Shown here: piece after piece, positions 1,246 to 43,838 of the stretch | Position numbering within the stretch: the first letter of the stretch is position 1 | How the letters are laid out: each line of letters opens with the position of its first letter | From: a virus | Taxonomy: Duplodnaviria; Heunggongvirae; Uroviricota; Caudoviricetes | Virus record (IMG/VR): IMGVR_UViG_3300045988_155859 | Reading direction: 5' to 3' (one strand) | DNA length: 48,404 bases | Position numbers and translations under genes: made by a program | Notes under the pieces: model-generated | What the model was told of the DNA's origin: nothing | The model's database searches: none | What the model saw: the letters and a program-made list of their open reading frames with translations, nothing else

Positions 1246-1410
1246 GGTGATAGTTCCCTTAAAGGTTAAGGATACTCACCACCGTCTGGTTCCAATCATT
1301 GGGTGGTGAGACGTACAGGGTTGGAACTACCGGTCACCATGGAATCCGGCGAGTCTTACGACTCCCCCGCACGCCCCACCATAATTTGGGTGTAGCAGTG
1401 CTTTACGCAT

Positions 1411-1430
1411 AAAAAAACCGCTAACGCGGT
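1411..1430 (-). terminator. Candidate intrinsic terminator (minus strand)
   Basis: Minus-strand hairpin ACCGC-GTTA-GCGGT followed by TTTTTTT; short stem. Confidence 0.35.
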
Positions 1431-1577
1431 ATGCGCCATGATGATTATCGGGGTTCCAATCCCGACCGTAGATTTTGCTACGGCTCGGAAAGTGTCCACC
1501 AATGGCGCATTCATGTCAATACGGCGGGATTTTAACAGAGATAACCACATAGCGTGGGTTTATTGGTAGGCAGAAAC

Positions 1578-1602: not shown

Positions 1603-2001
1603 TTCTTTCGTGCTGATCGGATTCGCGGTCCTTTCAGCATAACGTCGTTGTATAAACAACCACGCAAGCACAAGCAGCAAGTTAATTTTACCCAAAAGGT
1701 AATAATAGTCCACTATTATGCTTCAAAAAATTGTGGTTCTTGTTGTGCCTGCAAACTCACAGATTGTGGGTAGGTTACTGATTTTGTGAAAATAAACGAG
1801 TTTTTTCGTTTAATTTCTTTCCTATTACTAATCTTAAAATAATCGTAAAATACCTGTGGACCTTCCCGCCGATTCGCACCCGGGCACCGACTTTAGGGGA
1901 GGATTCTCCGTTGCCGTACATGCAAGCACAAGCAGCCGTGCTTGCTCTCGCGTTGTTTTCGTCGGTGGGGATGCCGTGAAACGGCCTGTAAGGGCCATAC
2001 A

Positions 2002-2124
2002 ATGAAAAAATACTGTATGTGTATTTTTATCGTTGTTACTGGGGCTTTGTTTACGCCACATGGGGAGGGTTGGAAGATTACTGATAACGCTCTGAATGTG
2101 ACGATAAACATTAGCAGCAAGTAG
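2002..2124 (+). CDS. Candidate small hydrophobic peptide (40 aa)
   Basis: MKKYCMCIFIVVTGALF... hydrophobic N-terminus, with a strong terminator immediately downstream; no recognisable family. Confidence 0.2.
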   Translation: MKKYCMCIFIVVTGALFTPHGEGWKITDNALNVTINISSK

Positions 2125-2129
2125 CGATT

Positions 2130-2153
2130 AGGCCCCTTCGGGGGCCTTTTTTA
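2130..2153 (+). terminator. Intrinsic terminator
   Basis: Perfect hairpin AGGCCCC-TTCG-GGGGCCT followed by TTTTTT. Confidence 0.7.
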
Positions 2154-9702: not shown

Positions 9703-9952
9703 TTCCGCACGGCTACAGCTTGGTTTTTCACCGCTATCAAAAACCATCGTGTTGGCCAAAATGCGCGATTTAGGTGACGGAACAAAACGCCGTGTAGGCA
9801 ATGATCGCGGTTGTGATGTAACCAACGAGGCCGCACAACTCGTTTGGCATCTTGTCATGGCAGAAGGCGGTGAAATCAATTGGGAGCTGGATGATGGTTC
9901 TCGCATGGTGTTAAGGGCAGAAAAGCAGGGGGCAAACGATGAAAAACCGTAA
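9695..9952 (+). CDS. Hypothetical protein
   Basis: In-frame GTG at 9695 with AGGGGG RBS and GTGA overlap of the upstream stop. Confidence 0.35.
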   Translation: MSNSARLQLGFSPLSKTIVLAKMRDLGDGTKRRVGNDRGCDVTNEAAQLVWHLVMAEGGEINWELDDGSRMVLRAEKQGANDEKP

Positions 9953-10130
9953 AGCAAAGATGCTTATTTCCCGTGTATACAGACTTTGCTACCCCAGCCA
10001 GTGGTTGAGAGTTAGCAATCGCCGTGTGGTGTTGTTTTCATTTTCTGGAATTGCCAGAGAGGGAGTCAAAGATAAGCGCAGCGCGGCGCAAAACCGCTGG
10101 AAAAACCACTTGCGTACTAAAGGAGAGTGA
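9939..10130 (+). CDS. Hypothetical small basic protein
   Basis: 63-aa ORF ending in the conserved junction GTGATATGG shared by downstream genes. Confidence 0.3.
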   Translation: MKNRKAKMLISRVYRLCYPSQWLRVSNRRVVLFSFSGIAREGVKDKRSAAQNRWKNHLRTKGE

Positions 10131-10131
10131 T

Positions 10132-10341
10132 ATGGCTGTTGCCGCAAGTTACACCATGCATCTCTACTGTGATTGTCGTCAGTGTACAAATGGTAAATAT
10201 CAGTCGCCAGACTTCGGTGAGTATATCGGTACGTCATGGGCAGGCTGTGCAAAAGAGGCGCGCAAGGATGGCTGGCGAATAAGCAAAGACAAAACGCGTG
10301 CTTTTGCGCCCGGGCATAAAGTTTTGAGGATTAATAAATGA
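10132..10341 (+). CDS. Hypothetical Cys-rich small protein
   Basis: Start at the internal Met with AAGGAGAG RBS; MAVAASYTMHLYCDCRQC... Confidence 0.4.
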   Translation: MAVAASYTMHLYCDCRQCTNGKYQSPDFGEYIGTSWAGCAKEARKDGWRISKDKTRAFAPGHKVLRINK

Positions 10342-10787
10342 CCACTATTACCAAAGAACGTGCGGAGATTAAATCATTCATCACAGGCTTCCTGAGCGAC
10401 CCGGCGCACGATAACCAATCTTCAAGCAGTCTGCTTGCCAATGTGTTTCGTATCGCACTGGCATCGTTGGAAGCAGAGCCAGTCGCGTGGCGATATCGCT
10501 ACGTGAAAAAAGGCGTTACGGACTCTCAGGGGGAGCCGTGGGTTGGTGACTGGAAATATGTACCGACAAAAGAGGATTGCAACGACAGGCCGAGCTATGA
10601 AATTCAGGCGTTATTCACTCCCCCGCCTGTGCCACTGATACCAGAAGGATTGATTAAAGCAGTGCGCTTCTATGAACAGGTTAAGCGTGAAAATCCGCCA
10701 GTCGAAACCGGAGCATGGAAAGACGCTGTTGACTGGGTTCTCGAAGAGGCTTGTCAGGCTGTAAACATTGGCATCAAAGGAGGGTGA
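10338..10787 (+). CDS. Hypothetical protein, member of the IALASLEAE paralogue family
   Basis: Contains FRIALASLEAEPVAW; related motifs in the 11080 and 11495 ORFs. Confidence 0.45.
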   Translation: MTTITKERAEIKSFITGFLSDPAHDNQSSSSLLANVFRIALASLEAEPVAWRYRYVKKGVTDSQGEPWVGDWKYVPTKEDCNDRPSYEIQALFTPPPVPLIPEGLIKAVRFYEQVKRENPPVETGAWKDAVDWVLEEACQAVNIGIKGG

Positions 10788-10788
10788 T

Positions 10789-11076
10789 ATGGCAACTTTG
10801 CAGGAATTAATCGACCTGACGCCAGAACAGGAAAAAGCGTGGAATCGCCTTGTAAAGGCTGTAAAGGATTTCAGGGCAGCCGGAGGAAAGTTTTATAGCG
10901 TCCTGGACACGCTGAGCGCATACAACGGCGAGCACGTTGCCAGCATTGATAACGATAAGGGCTACCACACTGCAAGCGTCTATATGCCTAGCATTGATGC
11001 GCCAGGGCTAACCAGTTGGGCTGATGATTGGCACGGCATCACGCTGAAAGATGGGGTTGAAGTGGATGAGGACTAA
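10789..11076 (+). CDS. Hypothetical protein
   Basis: Start at the Met following GGAGGGTGATATGG; 95 aa. Confidence 0.4.
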   Translation: MATLQELIDLTPEQEKAWNRLVKAVKDFRAAGGKFYSVLDTLSAYNGEHVASIDNDKGYHTASVYMPSIDAPGLTSWADDWHGITLKDGVEVDED

Positions 11077-11079
11077 CAC

Positions 11080-11493
11080 ATGACTACTTTTACCGACAAA
11101 GAACTGATTAAAGAAATCAAAGAGCGCATAGGCAGCCTGGACGTCCGAGACAATATTGAGCGTCGGGCTTATGAAATTGCTCTGGCATCGCTGGAAGCAG
11201 AGGCAGTTATGTTCTGTATATCAGGACAAAATGTAGATTCAGAAGAACATGTATCAACCAGCAAAGCGGTTGTTGATGCCTGGGTTGAAGAATGGAATCA
11301 GGTTGACGGAAGTCCTGGCGAACCACTGTACAAAACTATGCCACTCTACTATCACGCTGCCTTGCCAGCGCCGGTAGTGCCGGATGAAATGTATTGGCAG
11401 GATGCGCCAGTTGAAGGCAGCAGCAAAGCGGCTGCATACGCTACAGGCTGGAATGCCTGCCGCGCCGCCATGCTTCAGGGGAAAGGGAAGTGA
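11080..11493 (+). CDS. Hypothetical protein, IALASLEAE paralogue
   Basis: Contains AYEIALASLEAEAV. Confidence 0.45.
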   Translation: MTTFTDKELIKEIKERIGSLDVRDNIERRAYEIALASLEAEAVMFCISGQNVDSEEHVSTSKAVVDAWVEEWNQVDGSPGEPLYKTMPLYYHAALPAPVVPDEMYWQDAPVEGSSKAAAYATGWNACRAAMLQGKGK

Positions 11494-11494
11494 T

Positions 11495-11770
11495 ATGGCT
11501 ACTTTTACCAAAGAGCAATTGATTGCCCATATTCGTGAACGTAAGGAAGCGCGCCAGAGAATGTTGGATACGGTAACTATTAACCCCGGATTTCGTGAAT
11601 ATCTTGAAAGAGAGCTTGCTACAGATGAAATTGCACTGGCATCCCTGGCATCTGCACCTGTTGCATGGCTAGTTGGAGGGCGTTTGTTCACAACTGAGAT
11701 AGCTGCGGGGATGTACGCTAGTGAGGTGAGGAAAGCAGTTAAGCCGCTATTCTTTTCTGCACTACTGTGA
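11495..11770 (+). CDS. Hypothetical protein, IALASLEAE paralogue
   Basis: Start at MATFTKEQ after GGGAAGTGATATGG; contains EIALASLASAPVAW. Confidence 0.4.
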   Translation: MATFTKEQLIAHIRERKEARQRMLDTVTINPGFREYLERELATDEIALASLASAPVAWLVGGRLFTTEIAAGMYASEVRKAVKPLFFSALL

Positions 11771-11914
11771 GTATTGTTTTTTTATTGATCGATTAACCAC
11801 ATTTTGAAGGTTTTTTTATGGGGAAACCTTGTTTTAGGTGGTAACTGGGTGTAGTGTTTCATTTAACGTAGTAAAACTGCGTTAAGCGATTACCGCGTAA
11901 TTTGTTGCTTTATG

Positions 11915-11947
11915 AAGCCCTGCCTTTTTCGGCGGGGCTTTTTTTTT
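11915..11947 (+). terminator. Intrinsic terminator immediately upstream of the lysis cassette
   Basis: GAAGCCCTGCC-TTTTTC-GGCGGGGCTT hairpin followed by a run of 9 T; the holin ATG is 14 nt downstream. Confidence 0.7.
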
Positions 11948-11960
11948 AACGAGGATTTCA

Positions 11961-12356
11961 ATGTCAGCAGAACCAATTTCCGGTACGGCCGTTGCTGCTG
12001 GTGGCCTGATGGGTGCCAGCGTTTTTGGTATTGCAACTGGTATTGATTACGGCGTTGTATTCGGGGCATTTGCTGGCGCTGTTTTCTATGTTGCTACAGC
12101 GGTGAATATTAGCCGTCTCAAGCTGATTGGCTATTTCTTTACATCGTTCATTGTTGGAGTGATTGGAGCGCCGTTAGTTGGCTCATTTCTTGCCAAATGG
12201 ACCAGCTACAACGATCGACCTCTTGATGCGCTTGGTGCGGTTATTGTGGCTGCATTGACAATTAAAATCCTCACGTTCGTAAACAGCCAGGATCTCGGTA
12301 GCATCTTTGGAATACTTTCCCGCTTACGTGGAGGGGGTTCAAATGGTAAGCAGTGA
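11961..12356 (+). CDS. Holin-like membrane protein
   Basis: 131 aa with several hydrophobic segments; first gene of a cassette that continues with the endolysin and spanins. Confidence 0.5.
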   Translation: MSAEPISGTAVAAGGLMGASVFGIATGIDYGVVFGAFAGAVFYVATAVNISRLKLIGYFFTSFIVGVIGAPLVGSFLAKWTSYNDRPLDALGAVIVAALTIKILTFVNSQDLGSIFGILSRLRGGGSNGKQ

Positions 12357-12639
12357 CCCGTCAGCACTGATTAATGCGGTGCTTTGCACAGTAATAGTAA
12401 TGGCGCTGATGCTTTATCGACGGAAAGACTCCAGGCATCGTCCATTTGTTTCCTTTCTGGCTTATATCTACGTCATTGTATACGCCAATGTTCCCTTCCG
12501 TTATGTGTTCGGTCTTTATCAAGAATCCCACTGGCTGGTGGTTATTGGAAATCTGATTATCTGCATCGTTGTTCTGTATTTCAGGGGCAATCTGGCGCGG
12601 ATAGTTGACGCATTAGGATTTAATCATGACCAAAGATGA
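12343..12639 (+). CDS. Second small membrane protein (holin or antiholin-like)
   Basis: Start at the internal Met with GGAGGGGG RBS; hydrophobic segments; sits between the holin and the endolysin. Confidence 0.45.
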   Translation: MVSSDPSALINAVLCTVIVMALMLYRRKDSRHRPFVSFLAYIYVIVYANVPFRYVFGLYQESHWLVVIGNLIICIVVLYFRGNLARIVDALGFNHDQR

Positions 12640-13168
12640 GATTTTTAACAGCATTCTTGGAAAAGAGGGCGGCTATGTGGATCACCCTGACGACAAGGGA
12701 GGCCCAACAAAGTGGGGCATTACTCAGAACACTGCCCGTGCTCATGGATACCGTGGCGATATGCGCGATTTAACCCGCGAACAGGCACTAGAAATCCTTG
12801 AGGCTGATTACTGGTACGGACCACGCTTTGATCAGGTGGCCGCATTATCCTCTGATATTGCCGCAGAGCTGTGTGATACCGGTGTGAATATGGGGCCAAC
12901 AGTGGCGTCCAAAATGCTTCAACGCTGGCTGAATGTGTTCAATCTGCGTGGGAAGCTGTATCCCGATTTGGATGCAGATGGACGAATCGGTCCACGTACC
13001 ATTAATGCGCTGCGTGCTTATCTTGGGAATCGGGGAAAAGACGGCGAACGGGTGATGCTGACGTCGCTGAACTGTACGCAGGGCGAACGCTATCTGGAGT
13101 TGGCGGAGAAGCGCGAGGCGAATGAGTCGTTTGTCTACGGCTGGATGAAAGAGCGAGTGGTGGTATGA
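12626..13168 (+). CDS. Endolysin, GH108-type muramidase with peptidoglycan-binding domain
   Basis: N-terminal EGGYVDHPDDKGGPTKWGIT motif characteristic of GH108 lysozymes. Confidence 0.8.
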   Translation: MTKDEIFNSILGKEGGYVDHPDDKGGPTKWGITQNTARAHGYRGDMRDLTREQALEILEADYWYGPRFDQVAALSSDIAAELCDTGVNMGPTVASKMLQRWLNVFNLRGKLYPDLDADGRIGPRTINALRAYLGNRGKDGERVMLTSLNCTQGERYLELAEKREANESFVYGWMKERVVV

Positions 13169-13443
13169 CTGGTTTGAAGGCCGTTTTGTCATTTATTGGC
13201 ACAATTATATTGGTTGCATTCGGCGCGTTTGGTTTTGGTCGTATGAAGGGGCGAGAAAAGGCCGAAGATGAAGCTGAAAAGCAGCGCATTAATGAGAATG
13301 CAGCCGCCGTAAAAGCCACTGCGGAGCGGCGTATAGAAGTGACAAAAGAGGCGGGGAATGTACAGCAGAGTGTTAACCATATGGCTGATGACGATGTTGA
13401 TCGCGAGCTGCGGGAGTCGTGGAAGCGTCCCGGTGGTGGTTGA
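13165..13443 (+). CDS. Rz-like inner-membrane spanin
   Basis: 92 aa with an N-terminal transmembrane segment then a charged, coiled-coil-like region; directly after the endolysin. Confidence 0.6.
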   Translation: MTGLKAVLSFIGTIILVAFGAFGFGRMKGREKAEDEAEKQRINENAAAVKATAERRIEVTKEAGNVQQSVNHMADDDVDRELRESWKRPGGG

Positions 13444-13567
13444 TACCGCCTGTGATTGGGTAAAGCCCATCTACCTGACTGATCACGACATCGATGTTAT
13501 GGACCGCCAGACAAAGAAAGATATTCTGGCTCATAACAGGGCATGGGAAATCAACTGCCGAAAGTAA
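13358..13567 (+). CDS. Rz1-like outer-membrane lipoprotein spanin, overlapping Rz in another frame
   Basis: Lipoprotein-type signal with lipobox-like LIASC; starts inside the Rz gene and extends beyond it. Confidence 0.55.
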   Translation: MYSRVLTIWLMTMLIASCGSRGSVPVVVDTACDWVKPIYLTDHDIDVMDRQTKKDILAHNRAWEINCRK

Positions 13568-13600
13568 TATATATTTCTATAATTATATAAATATATAGTT
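13563..13600. repeat. AT-rich motif cluster (TATATATTTCTATAATTATATAAATATATAG)
   Basis: Same TATA-rich motif family, downstream of the lysis cassette. Confidence 0.45.
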
Positions 13601-13736
13601 ACAACATTCTATGCGCTTTTCTCATGGGCGCACGCATCAACCATGTTTGTCTGATATGCCGCCGCGCCCAAAAATCCTGAATTTATTGGCTGGGATTTTC
13701 GTGCGCGGCGCCACACCAGACAAACAAATCAAATAT

Positions 13737-13812
13737 GGCCCCTTAGCTTAGTGGTTAGAGCAGGCGACTCATAATCGCACGGTCATCGGTTCAAATCCGG
13801 TAGGGGCCACCA
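13737..13812 (+). tRNA. tRNA with anticodon CAU (Met, or Ile if lysidine-modified)
   Basis: 76 nt folding by hand into a cloverleaf: 7-bp acceptor stem (GGCCCCT/AGGGGCC), D-arm GCTT...GAGC, anticodon loop CTCATAA, T-loop TTCAAAT, encoded CCA end. Confidence 0.8.
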
Positions 13813-14119
13813 ATTCACCCTCACACATAAAGATAAGCGCGGTGGAGTTACTTCTTCGTGCTCATCTTTATGCGTGCCTGGTGCGCATTTCGGGCGAACG
13901 TGGGGCTAAGTTACAGGCAGGGCCTGTTATCCGCAAAGGGGTAAAAGCTGGAGCGGCACGGAACTGTAGCCGTGTTACCAAAACAGCGCTGTCGGGCGAT
14001 ATCCGGCACACAACAGGCAAGGGCATTAATCAGTCTGGTTAGTGCCCTTTTCGTTGTGTCTGCTGTAGAGCTGGTCAGCGTTATGACTGCCGGAGATAAG
14101 CGCCGGAGGCACAACTAAC

Positions 14120-14707
14120 ATGGAGGCAATTGCATTGTTTAATCTGATTTATGCAGATCCCCCCTGGGAATACAAAGATAAGTGTAAGGATGGGAATCGT
14201 GGAGCTGGTTTTAAGTATCCAACGATGAAAGCTGAGGATATTGCTCGTATTCCTGTCTGGCAGCTTGCTAATCCTGAATCGTGTTTGTTGGCCATGTGGT
14301 GGGTTCCGACTCAGCCAGAAGAAGCGTTGCTGGTGGTGAAAGCATGGGGATTCAGGCTTATGACCATGAAGGGCTTCACATGGAACAAATGTGGTAGCCG
14401 ACAACCAGATAAGCTGGTGATGGGGATGGGGCATATGACTCGTGCAAACAGTGAAGATTGCTTGTTTGCGGTAAAAGGCAAATTGCCGACCCGCCTTGAT
14501 GCGGGGATCATTCAGTCGTTTACATCGCCTCGTCTGGAGCATTCTCGGAAGCCTGATGTGGTTCGTGACAAGCTGGTAAGGCTGTTAGGTGATGTTCCTC
14601 GTATTGAGCTGTTTGCTCGCGGTGATTTACCTGATGGTTGGCATGGCTGGGGCAACCAGTGCAATGGAGGTATCCAGTTGCATGATGCTCTCTGGCAAGT
14701 GGCATAG
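14120..14707 (+). CDS. MT-A70-family DNA N6-adenine methyltransferase
   Basis: IYADPPWEY (DPPW catalytic motif) near the N-terminus; 195 aa. Confidence 0.8.
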   Translation: MEAIALFNLIYADPPWEYKDKCKDGNRGAGFKYPTMKAEDIARIPVWQLANPESCLLAMWWVPTQPEEALLVVKAWGFRLMTMKGFTWNKCGSRQPDKLVMGMGHMTRANSEDCLFAVKGKLPTRLDAGIIQSFTSPRLEHSRKPDVVRDKLVRLLGDVPRIELFARGDLPDGWHGWGNQCNGGIQLHDALWQVA

Positions 14708-14818
14708 AATTATATAATTATAGATTTATATAAAAAGCGCTTTACAGGTGGGAAAAAATTTCCTAAGGTTATACCCGAAACCGAGCGATACCCGCCCTGG
14801 TTAAACCGGAGAAATCTG
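14708..14818 (+). promoter_or_regulatory. Repeated promoter/5'-leader cassette, copy B
   Basis: Near-identical to copies A and C; begins directly after the methyltransferase stop and ends at the 14819 ATG. Confidence 0.5.
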
Positions 14819-15088
14819 ATGAAAGTACAAGACCGTGAAGTAGTAAAAAACCTCCTGCAATACCTGACCTCAAAAAACCTGACGGGCAGCGTTGAGTTCC
14901 GTGAAGCGTTAAAACATTTCAACGTCACTACGGTTTATCGTTGGGAAAACAAACATTCTGAAAGACCGTATGTGGTGGATGTTTTTGCGCCTGATATTGA
15001 GTGCGGTTTTGAGCGTCATTCGTTCAAGGAGAAACATTCTGCTGATTTTTTTTGTGAGGTTGTATGTGCGGCAGGAGATGATGAGTGA
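14819..15088 (+). CDS. Hypothetical protein
   Basis: 89-aa ORF directly downstream of cassette copy B. Confidence 0.4.
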   Translation: MKVQDREVVKNLLQYLTSKNLTGSVEFREALKHFNVTTVYRWENKHSERPYVVDVFAPDIECGFERHSFKEKHSADFFCEVVCAAGDDE

Positions 15089-15285
15089 TGCGTATTTCCT
15101 TCAAACGTGCGACTGAGCAGCAACGCAAAGAGTTCCTGGCTGATGATGTAGCGGCCGTTTATGACCTCATGAAAGAGGTTGTGGAATCAGGGAACTACAC
15201 GGCGGCAAAGATGCTTAAACTGCAATTCTTGCTGGGCGACCTGAAATACAAATCCGAAGTTGTCGCCGGACGACGCGAGCATTAA
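15085..15285 (+). CDS. Hypothetical protein
   Basis: 66-aa ORF overlapping the upstream stop codon. Confidence 0.35.
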   Translation: MMRISFKRATEQQRKEFLADDVAAVYDLMKEVVESGNYTAAKMLKLQFLLGDLKYKSEVVAGRREH

Positions 15286-15308
15286 ACCGTAACGATAACG
15301 AACAACGA

Positions 15309-15334
15309 GCCTCGGCAATTGCCGGGGCTTTTTT
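15309..15334 (+). terminator. Intrinsic terminator
   Basis: GCCTCGGC-AATT-GCCGGGGC hairpin followed by TTTTTT. Confidence 0.6.
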
Positions 15335-37796: not shown

Positions 37797-38370
37797 TATC
37801 TTTAATGTTAGCTTGTTGGATGTTTTACCTCCTAACTTAGCTAGCGATCCCAACGTGATAGCTATGTCGAAAGCTATTGATGATGAACTACAAGCAATTA
37901 ACAATTTAATATATAAGACAGAAATATATAGCGTTGTTGATAACCTGGACTCAGTTGTTCTCGATCATTTAGCTTGGCAATGGAATGCTGATACATGGAG
38001 GGATAGTTGGCCTGTATCGTTAAAGCGTTCTGTTTTTAAATCAATAATACGAACAAAGCGAATAAAGGGTACAAGGGCAGCGGTTGAAGATGTAGTAAAT
38101 AGCTTGGGTGGAGAGGTAAACATAACAGAATGGTTTGAAACATCACCACCTGGCGAACCATATACAGCCTCAATTGTTGCTTCGATTAACTCTTTTGATG
38201 GTGCTGTTCCTTCGAAAGAGATGTTGGAGGATACGTTAAGAAGTATCAAGAGTGCAAAGTCGGCAAGAACACTATTTACATTTTCGCAAGCAACCAATGT
38301 TTCAGGTGGTGTTGGTATTGTCGGTGCTTTCCAGCCTGTGTCTTATGTACGATTAATTGGTGAGTGCTAA
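37789..38370 (+). CDS. Tail protein I-like
   Basis: 193 aa between J and the tail fibre. Confidence 0.6.
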   Translation: MADIFNVSLLDVLPPNLASDPNVIAMSKAIDDELQAINNLIYKTEIYSVVDNLDSVVLDHLAWQWNADTWRDSWPVSLKRSVFKSIIRTKRIKGTRAAVEDVVNSLGGEVNITEWFETSPPGEPYTASIVASINSFDGAVPSKEMLEDTLRSIKSAKSARTLFTFSQATNVSGGVGIVGAFQPVSYVRLIGEC

Positions 38371-38400
38371 TTTGCGATTTGTTAATCCAAGGAATTAAGC

Positions 38401-41247
38401 GTGAGTAAATTATTATTTACGATGACTGACGCCGGGCGTAAGGCGCTGGTTAATGCCAACAAGACTGGAACAAATAAAGTTGAGATCGTTTCTGTTGGTT
38501 TAGGTAGTAGATATTATGCCACATCAACCACACAAACAAAAATAACAGATGAAATAAAGCGACTTACCACAATAGGAGGCAAAGTCGTTTCTCCTGATAC
38601 CATTCATGTAACTGCGAAGGATGATAGTAAAGATGAGTATGTTGTCCATACAATAGGTTTGTATACAAATAAAGGAACATTGTTTGCTGTATACTCGCAA
38701 GAACAAGTAATAATAAATAAAGCATCTTCTACAATTGCTTTAATATCAAGTGATATAGCAATTAAAAATCTTGATACTAAAAACATTACATTTGGTGATG
38801 TTGAGTTTATTAACCCTCCCGCAACCGAAACTGTTGTTGGAGTAGCAAGATTTGCTAATGAACAAGAAATTGATGCAGGTACAGATGATTCCCTGGCTGT
38901 TTCAGCAAAGCGGCTTAAGCAAGCTATTGTAAAACATGAGCAATCACGTAATCATCCTGATGCAACTTTAACATCAAAAGGCATTGTTCAACTCAGTAAT
39001 GCCACCAATAGCACGTCTGAAAAGCTCGCAGCGACGCCTAAGGCTGTTAAGGCTGCATATGACCTGGCTAACGCTAAATACACCGCACAGGACGCTACCA
39101 CGGCGCGAAAAGGGATTGTTCAGCTCAGTAGTGCCACTAACAGTACGTCTGAAACGCAGGCGGCAACGCCAAAAGCGGTCAAGGCAGCAAATGACAACGC
39201 AAATTCACGTCTGGCGAAAAATCAGAACGGTGCAGATATCCAGGATAAATCAGCTTTTCTGGACAATGTTGGCGTTACCAGCCTGACGTTTATGAAAAAC
39301 AATGGCGAAATGCCGCTTGATGCTGATCTGAATACGTTTGGTCCTGTTAAGGCTTATTCAGGTATCTGGTCTAAAGCAACATCCACCAACGCAACACTGG
39401 AGAAAAATTTCCCGGAAGATAATGCTGTCGGTGTGCTTGAGGTTTTTGCTGCCGGCAATTTTGCAGGTACGCAACGCTTTACCACGAGAGACGGCAATGT
39501 ATACATGCGTAAACTCGCCAATAAGTGGAATGGCACTGATGGTCCGTGGGGCGTATGGCGTCACACTCAATCTGCTACCCGCCCTTTGAGTACGACTATA
39601 GACCTGAATACGCTTGGAGCCGCCGAGCATCTTGGTTTATGGCGTAACAGTAGCTCAGCTATAGCTTCATATGAACGCAATTATCCAGAGGAAGGCGGCT
39701 TTGCTCAGGGGATGCTTGAGATCCTCGAAGGCGGAAATTATGGAAGAACGCAACGTTATACCACTCGCCGTGGAAATATGTATGTCCGCTGTCTTGCGGC
39801 AAGCTGGGATGCATCAAATCCGCAGTGGGAACCGTGGTTAAGAGTCGGTCATCAGTCAGAGAGTCGTTATTACGACGGTGATTTGAATGATGTAACCTCA
39901 CCAGGTATTTACAGCGTTACAGGTAAAGCGACCAACGGTCCAATACTGGACGGAAACGGCGTGACAGTCCTCGGTATTCTGGAGGTGTTGAGGCGCTTTG
40001 ATGGTGTTAATGTATGGCAGCGTTATACAACTGCCGGAACAGGTACAACCCTTAAAGGCCGCACCTTTGAGCGCGTCTTTACCGGCAGCTCATGGAGCGA
40101 ATGGCGGGAAGTCTACACCTCGTATTCACTTCCCCTGAATCTGGGTATCGGCGGTGCTGTGGCAAAGCTCACCAGCCTGGACTGGCAGACCTACGATTTT
40201 GTGCCGGGCAGTCTGATAACCGTTCGGCTTGATAACATGACCAATATTCCCGACGGTATGGACTGGGGCGTCATTGATGGCAACCTGATAAACATCTCAG
40301 TCGGTCCGAGTGATGATTCTGGTTCGGGACGCTCAATGCATGTATGGCGCAGCACTGTAAGTAAAGCCAACTACCGCTTTTTTATGGTTCGCATTTCAGG
40401 AAATCCGGGAAGCCGCACGATCACGACAAGACGTGTGCCAATTATCGACGAAGCTCAGACATGGATGGCGAAACAGACATTCAGCGGTGGTCTTTCAGGC
40501 GAACTATCCGGCAATGCTGCTACAGCAACAAAGCTGAAAACGGCAAGGACAATTAACGGCGTAAAATTTGACGGCTCGGCAAATATTGAAGCGTTTCCGC
40601 CAGGTGTTCCGCTGCCGTGGCCATCAGATACGCCACCTGCAGGTTATGCAATCATGCTGGGGCAGACGTTTGATAAGGCAGCATATCCGAAACTGGCTAT
40701 TGCCTATCCTTCTGGTGTTATTCCAGATATGCGCGGCTGGACAATCAAGGGCAAACCCGCCAGTGGTCGGGCCGTATTGTCTCAGGAACAGGATGGCATT
40801 AAATCGCACACCCACAGTGCCAGCGCATCCAATACGGATTTGGGTACGAAAACCACATCGTCGTTTGATTACGGTACTAAATCAACGAATAACACAGGTG
40901 CACATACCCATAATGTATCTGGTACTGCAAATAGTGCTGGCGCACATACTCATACCGTTCCATTAAGGAGACCAAACAGTGGCGGTATGAATTTCGACTG
41001 GCTGGATGGTTCATCAAGTGGCACGGTGGTGGGGAATGGAACTGTGCCTTCTTCTGGCGCACATACCCACTCAGTATCAGGTACCGCTACAAGTGCTGGG
41101 GCACATGCACACACTGTTGGTATTGGCGCTCATACGCACTCTGTTGCGATTGGTTCACATGGACACACCATCACCGTTAACGCTGCTGGTAACGCGGAAA
41201 ACACCGTTAAAAACATCGCATTTAATTATATTGTGAGGCTTGCATAA
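38401..41247 (+). CDS. Tail fibre protein
   Basis: GTG start; 948 aa; tandem KGIVQLS(N/S)ATNSTSE...[10 protein letters not shown] repeats; C-terminal His-rich GAHTHxV repeats; followed by the assembly chaperone. Confidence 0.8.
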
Positions 41248-41864
41248 TGGCATTCAGAATGAGTGAACAATCACGTACCGTAAAAATTTATAACCTGCTG
41301 GCCGGAACTAATGAGTTTATTGGTGAAGGTGACGCATATATTCCACCTCATACAGGGCTGCCAGCTAATTCTACAGATATCGCCCCACCGGAAATTCCTG
41401 CTGGCTTTGTGGCAGTTTTTAACAGTGAAAATGAATCGTGGAATATTGTTGAAGACCATCGTGGTAAAACGGTCTATGACGTGGCGTCGGGGGACGCATT
41501 GTTTATTTCTGAACTCGGACCGCTACCAGAGAATGTCACCTGGTTGTCGCCAGCAGGGGAGTATCAGAAGTGGGACGGCGTATCCTGGGTGAATGATGAG
41601 GAAGCAGAAAAACTGTTTCGGATACGGGAAGCGGAAGAGAAAAAGGCAAGGTTGATCCAGGAAGCAACAGATAACATCGCAATTCTGCAGGATGCAGTTA
41701 ATCTTGAAATAGCAACAAACGAGGAAAATTCACAACTGGATTCCTGGAGAAAATACAGAGTATTAGTGAGTAGAATTGACACCAGTACAGCTCCGGATAT
41801 CGTATGGCCAGAGCTGATGAATCAGGGTTATGTTCGGGAGGACGAGCAGATAACTTCAGACTGA
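41247..41864 (+). CDS. Tail fibre assembly chaperone (Tfa-like)
   Basis: 205 aa with the C-terminal ...[24 protein letters not shown] motif typical of Tfa proteins. Confidence 0.7.
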
Positions 41865-42391
41865 AATTTAGTGATGAATGTTGAATCATCAGGAATATCA
41901 TGCAATACCAATGCATGAGCACCTATTGTGACATTGTTTCCTATACGCACTTTGCCACCAAGAATGGTGGCATTACAACCAATGGTCACATTATGCCCTA
42001 TAACAATATCCATATCATTAAATTCCCCGCGAAGTCCAATAGTTACTCCGGGCTTAATTGAACAATTTTCACCGATTGTTACTTTGTGACCGATAACAAC
42101 ACTGTTGAGATAAGAAATATCAAAGCCTTTCCCTATATTTACAGTTAAAGGGACTGTTACATTATATTTATCAAGAATGAAACGTTCTATTTTTCCCGCA
42201 ATCTTCCGACAGTATCCGCCTTTATCAAAAAGGTATTTGGCTATGCGCCACCAAAATAAATAACGAACCCTTCTATGTTTTATTGCGCGAACAATTGCCT
42301 TTTGCCAGGAGAAAGGACGCTCGCTACCGATTACTTCATAGTGAATACAGTCTTTAAGTTCATTAATATTCATATCTTTATTATTCAGCAT
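41828..42391 (-). CDS. Hexapeptide-repeat acyltransferase (left-handed beta-helix family), candidate lysogenic-conversion gene
   Basis: Repeated [LIV]-G-x-x-x-x hexads ([23 protein letters not shown]...[34 protein letters not shown]); convergent with Tfa and overlapping its 3' end by 37 bp. Confidence 0.7.
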
Positions 42392-42806
42392 AAGATAATC
42401 ATGTGACCAATTATTGTAATAATTTTAATGGTATGTTTCTACTGGCTATCCAGCGTGTCTGATATCCAGTAACAAATCGTCAACACGGGTGCAATCAAAT
42501 AGTGAGTGTTAAGACTGACCACTTATTACCAGGTATGAGTGGCCAGCATTAAATCAGAACAGCCCTTTAACTGAACTGGCCGCGCTGTTAAGGGATGATG
42601 TCACCTTATCTTTGAAGCCGGACAGCATATTGCTGAACGATGAGTTTACCGCAGGTTTCTGGCTGGGAATCATTGACTGGAGTTAGGCCAGTAGTATGAT
42701 GCTCGCAAAACGAGATCCAATTTAGATCCTTTTACTGGTGGATTATCGTTCGATCAGTGAGAGACTTCGTGCATGACCGAAAGTGTTGTGGTAGAGTTCT
42801 CTTAAA

Positions 42807-42821
42807 ACCACGTAACGTGGT
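42807..42821. promoter_or_regulatory. Operator-like palindrome ACCACGTAACGTGGT upstream of repA
   Basis: Same ACCAC-N5-GTGGT dyad as the sites in the cI-cro region. Confidence 0.45.
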
Positions 42822-42861
42822 TATGATTGTGGGTGTCTGGTTGGAAAGTGACCAGATATGG

Positions 42862-42975
42862 AAACAAAAAGCCCGCAGATAAATCTGCGGGCTTCTTGCG
42901 ACATCCACGGAAAACCAACAACAACAATCCATGGGCGCCTCGACAACTCCCATTATACGTTGGTTTTCCGTGGAC
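42862..42975 (-). ncRNA. Candidate CopA-like antisense RNA over the repA leader
   Basis: Minus-strand terminator hairpin (11-bp stem AGCCCGCAGAT/ATCTGCGGGCT, 42870-42893) followed on the minus strand by a T-run; a 13-bp long-range inverted repeat (42904-42916 with 42962-42974) in the leader. Boundaries approximate; no promoter identified. Confidence 0.35.
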
Positions 42976-42989
42976 GCAAGAGCGAACAT

Positions 42990-43838
42990 ATGGATAGACC
43001 AATGCCGTCTCTACGTTCAGCTTACGTTTGTAATTTGTCGCCGGAGTTCCAGCCTCCAAAGCACCATACGCACAAGCTGCCGCTGGTGTTATCTGATGCT
43101 TTACAGCGCATTAATGGGCGTGATCTTACGTGTGAGGTTGCGTTCTACGTTAATCAACCGTCAGAGCGGAAGCGCCGGATAAACGAGCATCGTCGTCGGG
43201 CGATTAATGCTGTGATCGCTGCGATTTTGCACCATGTAAACATCATTTCTAAGCGGGTTCTGGCTAGTGCTGAGGCGTTGGCTGATTTTTGCGGCCTGTC
43301 TACCGTATCCGAAGCTGGGAACAAGTCTATAACGCGCTGTACAAGGGCGTTGTCGCAACTGAAAGCGTTAGGTTTTATTGATTATGAACGTCGCTGGGAT
43401 CGGGTGAATAAACAGTATTGGCCAGCGAAAATAGAGATTCGTGATCAACTGCTGGAAACCGTTGGTATTACTGAACAAGCATGGAGACGTGCGGTTAGCC
43501 AGAAACTTAATTACTTCAATGCGAAGAATAGCGAACGGCTTAAAAAAGCGATAACGGAGGCTGATTATAAGCGTATTGTTATTCAGGAGCAGATGGAGAA
43601 TGTATGGCGTCAGAGGAAGACGGCCAGAGAGATAAAGGCAAAACAGAAAGCAGCGGAGAGAGCTGCGCGTCTTGTTCGGGAAAAGGGAGAGGCCGAACTT
43701 CGTCATCAAATCACCAGAGAGGTTAGTCAGGAATTTGCTGATGGCATGTATCCTGGTGCTGACCTTGCATATTTACGATCCCTCGTTGAGCAGCGTTATA
43801 ACAGGTTAAGAAAGACCTGGAAATCACTCCAACATTAA
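42990..43838 (+). CDS. repA: Replication initiator RepA (IncFII RepA1-like)
   Basis: ...RRAINAVIAAILHHVNI...CGLSTVSEAGNKSITRCTRALSQLKALGFIDYE... parallels R100 RepA1 as I recall it. Start set at the Met where the similarity begins; the frame is open upstream to 42858. Confidence 0.75.
   Translation: MDRPMPSLRSAYVCNLSPEFQPPKHHTHKLPLVLSDALQRINGRDLTCEVAFYVNQPSERKRRINEHRRRAINAVIAAILHHVNIISKRVLASAEALADFCGLSTVSEAGNKSITRCTRALSQLKALGFIDYERRWDRVNKQYWPAKIEIRDQLLETVGITEQAWRRAVSQKLNYFNAKNSERLKKAITEADYKRIVIQEQMENVWRQRKTAREIKAKQKAAERAARLVREKGEAELRHQITREVSQEFADGMYPGADLAYLRSLVEQRYNRLRKTWKSLQH

Follow-up and report, generated by a model that had tools for sequence, protein, structure and literature searches.

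A CysE-fold acyltransferase gene that travels with a tail-fibre tip in an Escherichia coli phage-plasmid: a moron mislabelled as serine acetyltransferase and a candidate modifier of the cell envelope

What does a phage do with a small acyltransferase gene that lies on the opposite strand, directly behind its tail-fibre module? The gene discussed here occupies positions 41828-42373 of a 48,404-nucleotide stretch of caudoviral DNA (IMG/VR record IMGVR_UViG_3300045988_155859), which as a whole is termed “the window” below. An initial annotation had described the product as a hexapeptide-repeat acyltransferase and proposed that the gene is lysogenic-conversion cargo, which might for example acetylate surface polysaccharide, change receptor properties and exclude superinfection; as a whole, this interpretation is partly supported. 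The gene is an already annotated, widespread phage moron that has been mislabelled as CysE, and, since distant cellular relatives reside in loci for polysaccharide synthesis, envelope-glycan acetylation, i.e., a form of lysogenic conversion, would be the best guess at its function. The gene and its convergent neighbour are laid out as follows:

41828..42373, minus strand: acetyltransferase coding sequence, 181 amino acids (aa) from the probable start (second ATG)
41828..42391, minus strand: longest open reading frame (ORF) of the acetyltransferase, 187 aa
41247..41864, plus strand: tfa, tail-fibre assembly (chaperone) gene, 205 aa, Caudo_TAP E=1e-39

Profile searches and structure prediction point to the same fold. 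The protein matches the Pfam model Hexapep PF00132 (E=1.1e-12, 47.5 bits at a cut-off of 27), and the hexapeptide pattern [LIV]-[GAED]-x2-[STAV]-x is matched eight times within residues 89-150 of the 181-aa form. CysE structures were matched at E=3e-12 with the single sequence and at E=1e-37 with a 100-sequence family profile. An AlphaFold model of the monomer, built on a 100-sequence alignment, reached a predicted local distance difference test (pLDDT) of 89.1 and a predicted template modelling (pTM) score of 0.81; it replaced a model from 35 sequences (pLDDT 74), for which a fold search was meaningless. The predicted structure consists of four N-terminal helices followed by a left-handed β-helix, and Foldseek aligned it to CysE structures with TM scores of 0.72-0.74 (E=5e-8). 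As predicted by these profiles and this model, and as the initial annotation had recognized, the protein is a left-handed β-helix acyltransferase of the hexapeptide-repeat superfamily, with a CysE fold; it is presumably soluble and trimeric. PHROGs assigned it at full length to phrog_2154 (263 bits), a family of unknown function, and the best NCBIfam matches, to EpsC (80.8 bits, cut-off 150), CysE and WcaB, all fall below their cut-offs. Similarity to the Vat/CatB xenobiotic acetyltransferases is weak (E ~1e-6).

RefSeq and GenBank name the product a serine acetyltransferase, and CysE is indeed its closest solved fold, with which it shares the C-terminal helices of the N-domain and the β-helix. 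That the gene encodes a true serine O-acetyltransferase, and would thus be an auxiliary metabolic gene that raises the supply of O-acetylserine and cysteine, is nevertheless highly improbable. This identity was rejected on scores that lie far below the cut-offs (TIGR01172, 71.4 bits vs 210.65; NF008349, 44.7 vs 397), and a Pfam search returned Hexapep-type models only, with no SATase_N domain. In the profile comparison the match sets in near residue ~100 of CysE, so that nothing in the window protein corresponds to the part of the chain before it. Moreover, the alignment shows Thr in place of Asp143, Ser in place of Asp157, Tyr in place of His158, Met in place of Arg192 and Asp in place of His193; in E. 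coli numbering, we take Asp143 and His158 to be the catalytic dyad of CysE, and Asp157, Arg192 and His193 to be its serine-binding residues. Because the catalytic and serine-binding residues are absent, the protein is neither a serine O-acetyltransferase nor a member of the CysE family. Judged by the alignment, the database label “serine acetyltransferase” is wrong for this phage family and should not be read as denoting a metabolic gene.

The gene is real and under purifying selection, and a chance ORF is excluded: between alleles, the ratio of nonsynonymous to synonymous divergence (dN/dS) is 0.04-0.12 at dS up to 0.5, the differences being mostly synonymous. Its 90%-identity cluster comprises 783 member sequences, and among 5426 complete E. 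coli genomes 184 (3.4%) carry it, at 158 chromosomal and 58 plasmid places. At this frequency, and with phage or phage-plasmid surroundings in all contexts examined, a conserved housekeeping acetyltransferase, the alternative raised by the initial annotation, does not fit. The second ATG (42373) is the more likely start of translation, since a related allele has TAC in place of the first one; the RefSeq annotation uses the same start and gives 181 aa, and the first ATG lies only ~15 nt from the predicted -10 box. A few records show insertion sequence (IS) elements within or close to the acetyltransferase/tfa block, and therefore occasional inactivation occurs. On the chromosome of E. coli strain E8 (NZ_CM180514.1, 2069568-2070908) IS1 splits the gene, and in the plasmids CP125027.1 and NZ_CP040921.1 the 7.3-kb region that was searched contains an IS3/IS2 insertion.

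The replicon that carries the gene has relatives among known plasmids. A 2-kb region around the acetyltransferase is matched at 100% identity by non-mobilizable E. coli plasmids of ~48-50 kb, e.g., NZ_CP032259, which combine full sets of myovirus head, tail and lysis genes with an IncFII-type RepA, ParA and a toxin-antitoxin pair; on account of this gene set the window is read as a ~48-kb E. coli phage-plasmid. Within it, the acetyltransferase gene is placed between tfa, which is the last tail gene, and repA, and the DNA from its promoter to repA contains the following elements:

42413..42441, minus strand: acetyltransferase promoter, sigma-70-like, predicted from sequence
42560..42578, minus strand: terminator-like hairpin at the end of a gene-U remnant, upstream of the acetyltransferase promoter
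42858-43838: RepA (PF02387, E=1e-43)

The position had been described as one that often holds cargo genes, and composition, a predicted promoter and distribution are in keeping with this. The GC content of the acetyltransferase gene is 0.375 (0.30 at third codon positions) vs 0.456 for tfa, 0.50 for the fibre tip and 0.446 for the window. The predicted promoter consists of a -35 box TAGAAA (42441-42436), a 17-bp spacer and a -10 box TACAAT (42418-42413), agrees with the consensus at nine of 12 positions and is kept in four phage backbones, in two of which the upstream alignment gives TATAAT as the -10 box. Backbone homology stops 1 nt upstream of the -35 box. Sibling 48-kb phage-plasmids have the baseplate genes, the fibre N-terminus and repA in common, and differ in the content of this slot: the ATCC 25922 plasmid and pGMI14-004_3 harbour an invertible tfa/tip segment with a Cin/Gin-type recombinase, two opposed tfa genes and an alternative tip, and others carry a different fibre with tfa followed directly by repA. 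Since the sibling slots differ, a fixed lambda-Stf-type tip plus acetyltransferase seems to have replaced the usual host-range switch in the window lineage. In P2-like prophages the acetyltransferase is found in the variable slot after tail-fibre gene G and before the tail-sheath operon. This slot is the “moron position 2” of Wiles et al. (PMC3573123) and also the Z/fun hotspot, which holds anti-phage systems (bioRxiv 10.1101/2024.10.15.618418). By these sequence features the gene is a self-contained moron, i.e., a (predicted) promoter and one gene. A 23-nt inverted repeat (41972-41994/42398-42420, 83% complementary) links the promoter/leader to a coding segment 400 nt downstream; it was considered as a regulatory pairing, but only ~9 nt of the upstream arm would be transcribed, two-copy matches often arise by chance, and this one may have done so as well.

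The moron does not move alone. A BLAST comparison of window positions 38000-43200 with three other phage backbones defined the shared blocks:

40596-42644: block in common with a P2-like prophage, 95.6% identity
40615-42461: block in common with a P1-like phage-plasmid, 93.7% identity
40594-42442: block in common with another myovirus prophage, 82% identity
40596..42442: minimal block of all four backbones, i.e., fibre tip, tfa, acetyltransferase and promoter
40596..41247, plus strand: tail-fibre distal tip, aa 732-948, with Collar domain and His-rich tip; left part of the block
42554..42634, minus strand: orphan remnant of P2-type tail gene U, namely its final 26 codons and the stop (…MLSGFKDKVTSSLNSAASSVKGLF*)

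As judged from these alignments, recombination placed the block in four temperate-phage backbones, namely this phage-plasmid, the P2-like prophage, the P1-like phage-plasmid and the other myovirus. In the P2-like prophage U lies just upstream of the acetyltransferase; the remnant in the window is identical to the end of that U gene, and the DNA homology runs to 42644. Because these 26 codons of gene U remain beside the window copy, the donor of the block was a P2-like prophage. The recombination joint in the tail-fibre gene, at ~40596 just before the Collar domain, is common to the three other backbones. The tail-fibre gene (38401-41247) is a mosaic, with a GC content of 0.34 over the first 400 bp and ~0.49-0.50 beyond, and contains internal direct repeats of 88 nt at 38976 and 39108, which are 81% identical.

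Among 307 relatives of the acetyltransferase in IMG/VR, the 80 best loci were surveyed for their neighbourhoods. Of the 43 loci with close homologues, 41 have a convergent tfa gene no more than ~100 bp away, and so do at least 15 of the 35 with distant homologues (33-51% identity), Mu-U-type chaperones being included; in other loci the homologue adjoins fibre-like genes, integrases or repressors. Homologues convergent with tfa are likewise present in Hafnia phage yong2 (52% identity), Citrobacter phage phiNP (39%) and the P1-like JL22 (36%). The JL22 and phiNP genes, sacF (PMC9603915) and sat (PMC6456863), belong to the same family and lie behind a lambda-Stf-type tip; unlike the window protein their products keep the catalytic His, and both are annotated only. 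In JL22 (locus L006, 773-5120) sacF is placed between the U chaperone of a cin-associated S/U set and an opposed tfa/stf set, i.e., next to or inside an invertible host-range region, so that inversion could change which strand is read into sacF. In three E. coli chromosomal P2-like prophages (L007/L008/L022, locus 9735-15320) the acetyltransferase lies downstream of U on the same strand, between convergent late operons; the tail sheath-tube-E-T-U operon of these prophages is, we presume, inverted relative to the canonical P2 gene order. About 20 Streptococcus thermophilus phages of the 987 group encode a 32%-identical “serine acetyltransferase/transferase” at one and the same position (~17.2 kb), and thus the carriage of short CysE-like acetyltransferases extends to phages of Gram-positive bacteria.

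Could such a gene simply persist without any role, as a passenger of a fibre-tip/tfa segment that recombines and determines host range? It falls within the boundaries of the shared block in every case, no E. coli tfa allele of at least 90% identity lacks it, and disrupted copies such as that of strain E8 occur now and then. Yet the low dN/dS (0.04-0.12 at dS up to 0.5) indicates that the protein itself is under selection, the promoter has been kept and in some alleles even improved to TATAAT, and the recurrence of distant homologues beside unrelated Tfa types implies repeated independent retention, all of which makes a mere passenger improbable.

Some of the surroundings would suit a role inside the cell, in defence, in counter-defence or as a modifier of a small molecule (a metabolite, an antibiotic, a nucleotide signal or a component of an incoming phage). 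P2-like ESSI2 phages carry a homologue between int and the end of the tail operon, which in ESSI2_ev040 adjoins an abortive-infection gene and int; the Z/fun hotspot is known for its anti-phage systems, relatives exist as orphan chromosomal copies outside any polysaccharide context, and the faint Vat/CatB similarity points in the same direction. A PADLOC search of the acetyltransferase, in contrast, returned no defence family at E<=0.01, and by far the strongest similarity is to CysE/WcaB/EpsC-type enzymes rather than to the xenobiotic class. Cellular homologues, furthermore, are embedded in glycan loci: in Flavobacterium, ~30%-identical proteins of the same length are encoded inside polysaccharide loci together with NeuB, an epimerase, a CMP-transferase, glycosyltransferases and Wzy. 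An intracellular defence or modifier function is on this evidence rather unlikely. The neighbourhoods of two further relatives (P0009 and P0014) consisted of short contigs or of an orphan gene beside a transposase. At locus L082 (3021-4124, minus strand) a distant homologue, 38% identical, has behind it a convergent ORF that resembles glycosyltransferase family 9 (heptosyltransferase; 21.5 bits at a cut-off of 22), both lying in an island of 28-30% GC beside toxin/immunity genes and a terminase fragment. As a lead to the lipopolysaccharide (LPS) core this locus was dropped, the match being borderline and the island scrambled, and it is retained as a weak hint only.

The proposal best supported is acylation of an envelope glycan in lysogens, because relatives reside in glycan loci, the nearest named families are polysaccharide acetyltransferases, and two prophage-borne surface-modifying enzymes, NeuO and NeaT, provide precedents. 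To the full proposal, a phage moron whose CysE-fold acyltransferase is expressed in the carrier state and modifies an envelope glycan, we give about an even chance. The gene would be transcribed from its own promoter in the lysogenic or plasmid state, whereas in lytic growth late tail-fibre transcription, which would run antisense through it, should oppose its expression; its own transcript would in turn run antisense into tfa, such that the two would interfere with each other. The donor would be an acyl-CoA, probably acetyl-CoA, and the target of the enzyme either a sugar nucleotide in the cytoplasm or an envelope-glycan intermediate linked to lipid, with LPS core, O-unit, enterobacterial common antigen and colanic acid as candidate acceptors. 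The cell surface might thereby be altered as in lysogenic conversion, possibly with effects on phage adsorption or host interaction.

NeuO, encoded by prophage CUS-3 of E. coli K1, is a polysialic-acid O-acetyltransferase that modifies the K1 capsule and raises phage resistance (PMC3046976, PMC13001214). Both NeuO and the window protein are phage-borne acetyltransferases with a left-handed β-helix, presumably soluble in the latter case, and both are carried as accessory cargo. Their sequence similarity is marginal, however; the match to the related OatWY (2wlc) is confined to residues 125-173 (E=0.0019). NeuO is a member of the MAT/OatWY branch, employs a catalytic His/Trp pair and is phase-variable through a 5' heptanucleotide repeat, whereas the window protein has a CysE-type fold and a Tyr in place of the His, and a search of positions 41000-43200 for NeuO-like phase-variation repeats found no tandem repeats. 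NeaT of the P2-like prophage in E. coli CFT073 (PMC3573123) resembles the window gene in genomic setting: it occupies the same P2 slot in opposite orientation to the fibre genes and is an AT-rich, single acyltransferase gene with its own promoter (predicted for the window gene). NeaT has a demonstrated effect on virulence and fitness and alters surface behaviour (PMC3573123). It is, however, an integral-membrane protein of an unrelated family, Acyl_transf_3 (PF01757), and the window protein a soluble hexapeptide-repeat protein, as far as can be predicted. Short polysaccharide acetyltransferases of the WcaB/EpsC type are similar in size (~160-190 aa) and architecture, but the window protein scores far below the equivalog cut-offs for WcaB (NF007564, 61.9 vs 196; TIGR04016, 59.8 vs 194.65), and its gene lies in a phage tail module, outside any wca or other polysaccharide cluster. 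The comparison with characterized surface-glycan acetyltransferases, which the initial annotation had called for, did not yield a counterpart: WcaB stays below its cut-off, NeuO and OatWY are marginal, and a Pfam search gave no match to PF01757, the integral-membrane domain of the seroconversion O-acetyltransferases Oac and NeaT.

A number of observations weigh against envelope-glycan acetylation by this moron; those from genomic context are given here, and those from the active site, the tfa overlap and the linkage to the tip in the following paragraphs. There is no terminator-like minus-strand site below 41828, and RNA folding of the downstream segment 41700-41850 showed no terminator structure (z=-0.45). 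A companion glycosyltransferase or flippase gene is absent. The named carriers among the matches listed include O6:H16, O121:H19 and O139:H1, and this variety of O types argues against an acceptor specific to one O-unit and for a conserved acceptor; enterotoxigenic E. coli, Shiga toxin-producing E. coli O121, avian pathogenic E. coli and bloodstream isolates are among the carriers. For sacF of JL22 the role is stated as unknown (PMC9603915), and a literature search for functional studies of the family returned only annotations and this remark.

The active site poses a further difficulty. Where relatives have the catalytic His (His158 in CysE), on the loop that follows the IGKG coil, the window protein has Tyr94 (numbering of the 187-aa form), and the alignment is gap-free between the invariant anchors IGKG and IGENC. 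In this column 100 of 118 relatives have His, 15 have Tyr and three have Asn; the Tyr proteins form one clade, and Tyr is found throughout this sub-clade, including the window protein and, at 52% identity, that of yong2. The corresponding motif of WcaB, in which we take the His to be conserved, is “TIHHG”. With Tyr at this position, it is not assured that O-acetyl groups are transferred by the standard mechanism. In the Tyr clade, either Tyr or another residue would substitute for the base, or the reaction would be base-free, or acyl transfer would have been lost. The sub-clade is under strong purifying selection and is therefore not decaying.

If acyl transfer was lost, the protein would be a pseudo-enzyme, a β-helix protein that binds CoA, a sugar or another protein. 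The exchange of the general base in all members of the sub-clade, together with Thr at the position of Asp143, would fit such a protein, and according to the NeuO structure paper the catalytic His was common to all β-helix acyltransferases crystallized by then (PMC3046976). Purifying selection and the conserved glycine/asparagine framework of the β-helix fit an active enzyme equally well. Furthermore, loss of the His need not abolish activity: QdtC and WlbB, two β-helix N-acetyltransferases of sugars on which Thoden and Holden worked in 2009/2010, reportedly function without a catalytic base. A pseudo-enzyme thus appears quite improbable.

The overlap of the two convergent genes, a striking feature of the locus, was confirmed: their reading frames share 41828-41864, i.e., 37 bp. 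It results from a short addition to tfa:

41817..41864, plus strand: derived tfa extension, 15 codons plus stop

In a related prophage allele (L021) tfa ends in …CCAGAGCTG TGA (…WPEL*), 10 bp before the acetyltransferase stop. At the old stop the window reads CCAGAGC--TGATGAAT…, with a 2-bp deletion relative to L021, and the extended gene gains 15 codons antisense to the acetyltransferase 3' end. The Caudo_TAP domain in the window protein ends at residue 189, and other Tfa proteins, like the Pfam domain, end at the ancestral position; the homologous gene pairs of yong2, phiNP and JL22 do not overlap. The 37-bp overlap exists, therefore, because the deletion destroyed the ancestral tfa stop. 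On this alignment it is real but incidental, with no design or regulatory meaning, a point against the simple form of the envelope proposal.

What, then, does the company of the fibre tip signify? Small exclusion genes that block a receptor are tied to receptor-binding genes in other phages, e.g., llp beside pb5 in T5 and cor in phi80/N15-type phages. As in these cases, the acetyltransferase is an accessory gene physically tied to a host-range determinant, with which it moves; llp and cor, in contrast, encode small lipoproteins that block FhuA directly. By extension, the acetyltransferase might be the self-protection half of a portable host-range and exclusion cassette, which in lysogens would mask the glycan receptor of the tip (e.g., LPS core) and would do so with a His-free active site, either Tyr-based or base-independent, as in the N-acetylation of an amino sugar. 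A phage that gained the tip by recombination would at the same time gain the masking of its receptor in the lysogens that it forms. This more specific scheme is speculative, and we consider it unlikely. The fibre tip is of the lambda-Stf type in seven of the eight phage or prophage contexts examined, but tfa genes of this kind are present in half of all E. coli genomes, and the linkage to the tip is for this reason only suggestive. The linkage may be simple physical hitch-hiking, which would speak against the broader proposal of envelope modification as well.

Several features elsewhere in the window concern the phage-plasmid itself. The 5' part of the repA ORF contains two strong hairpins, one at 42865-42898 (16-nt arms at 94%, 2-nt gap) and one at 42904-42974 (perfect 16-nt arms, 39-nt loop), which look like an IncFII-style antisense-RNA/leader control region. 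The match to the RepA family model begins only at residue 58, and the true start of repA may lie downstream of the annotated one. Matches at Rfam gathering level to C4 antisense RNA, isrK and ryfA at 1299-1386 (minus strand), 1411-1484 (minus strand) and 1856-2152 (plus strand) suggest a P1/P7-type c4-ant immunity region of the phage-plasmid. A tRNA gene is located at 13737-13809 on the plus strand (Rfam RF00005, 65.8 bits).

Two points about the acetyltransferase stand out: it invariably moves together with a host-range cassette, and its active site has no histidine. The His-to-Tyr exchange would offer a useful test case for the mechanism of β-helix acyltransferases. The permanent association with an exchangeable tip would illustrate cleanly how host range and exclusion can move as a unit. 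Should the enzyme change the envelope of its carriers, an unrecognized, phage-borne surface modification would be present in about 3% of E. coli isolates, with possible effects on serotyping, on the host range of therapeutic phages and on immune recognition.

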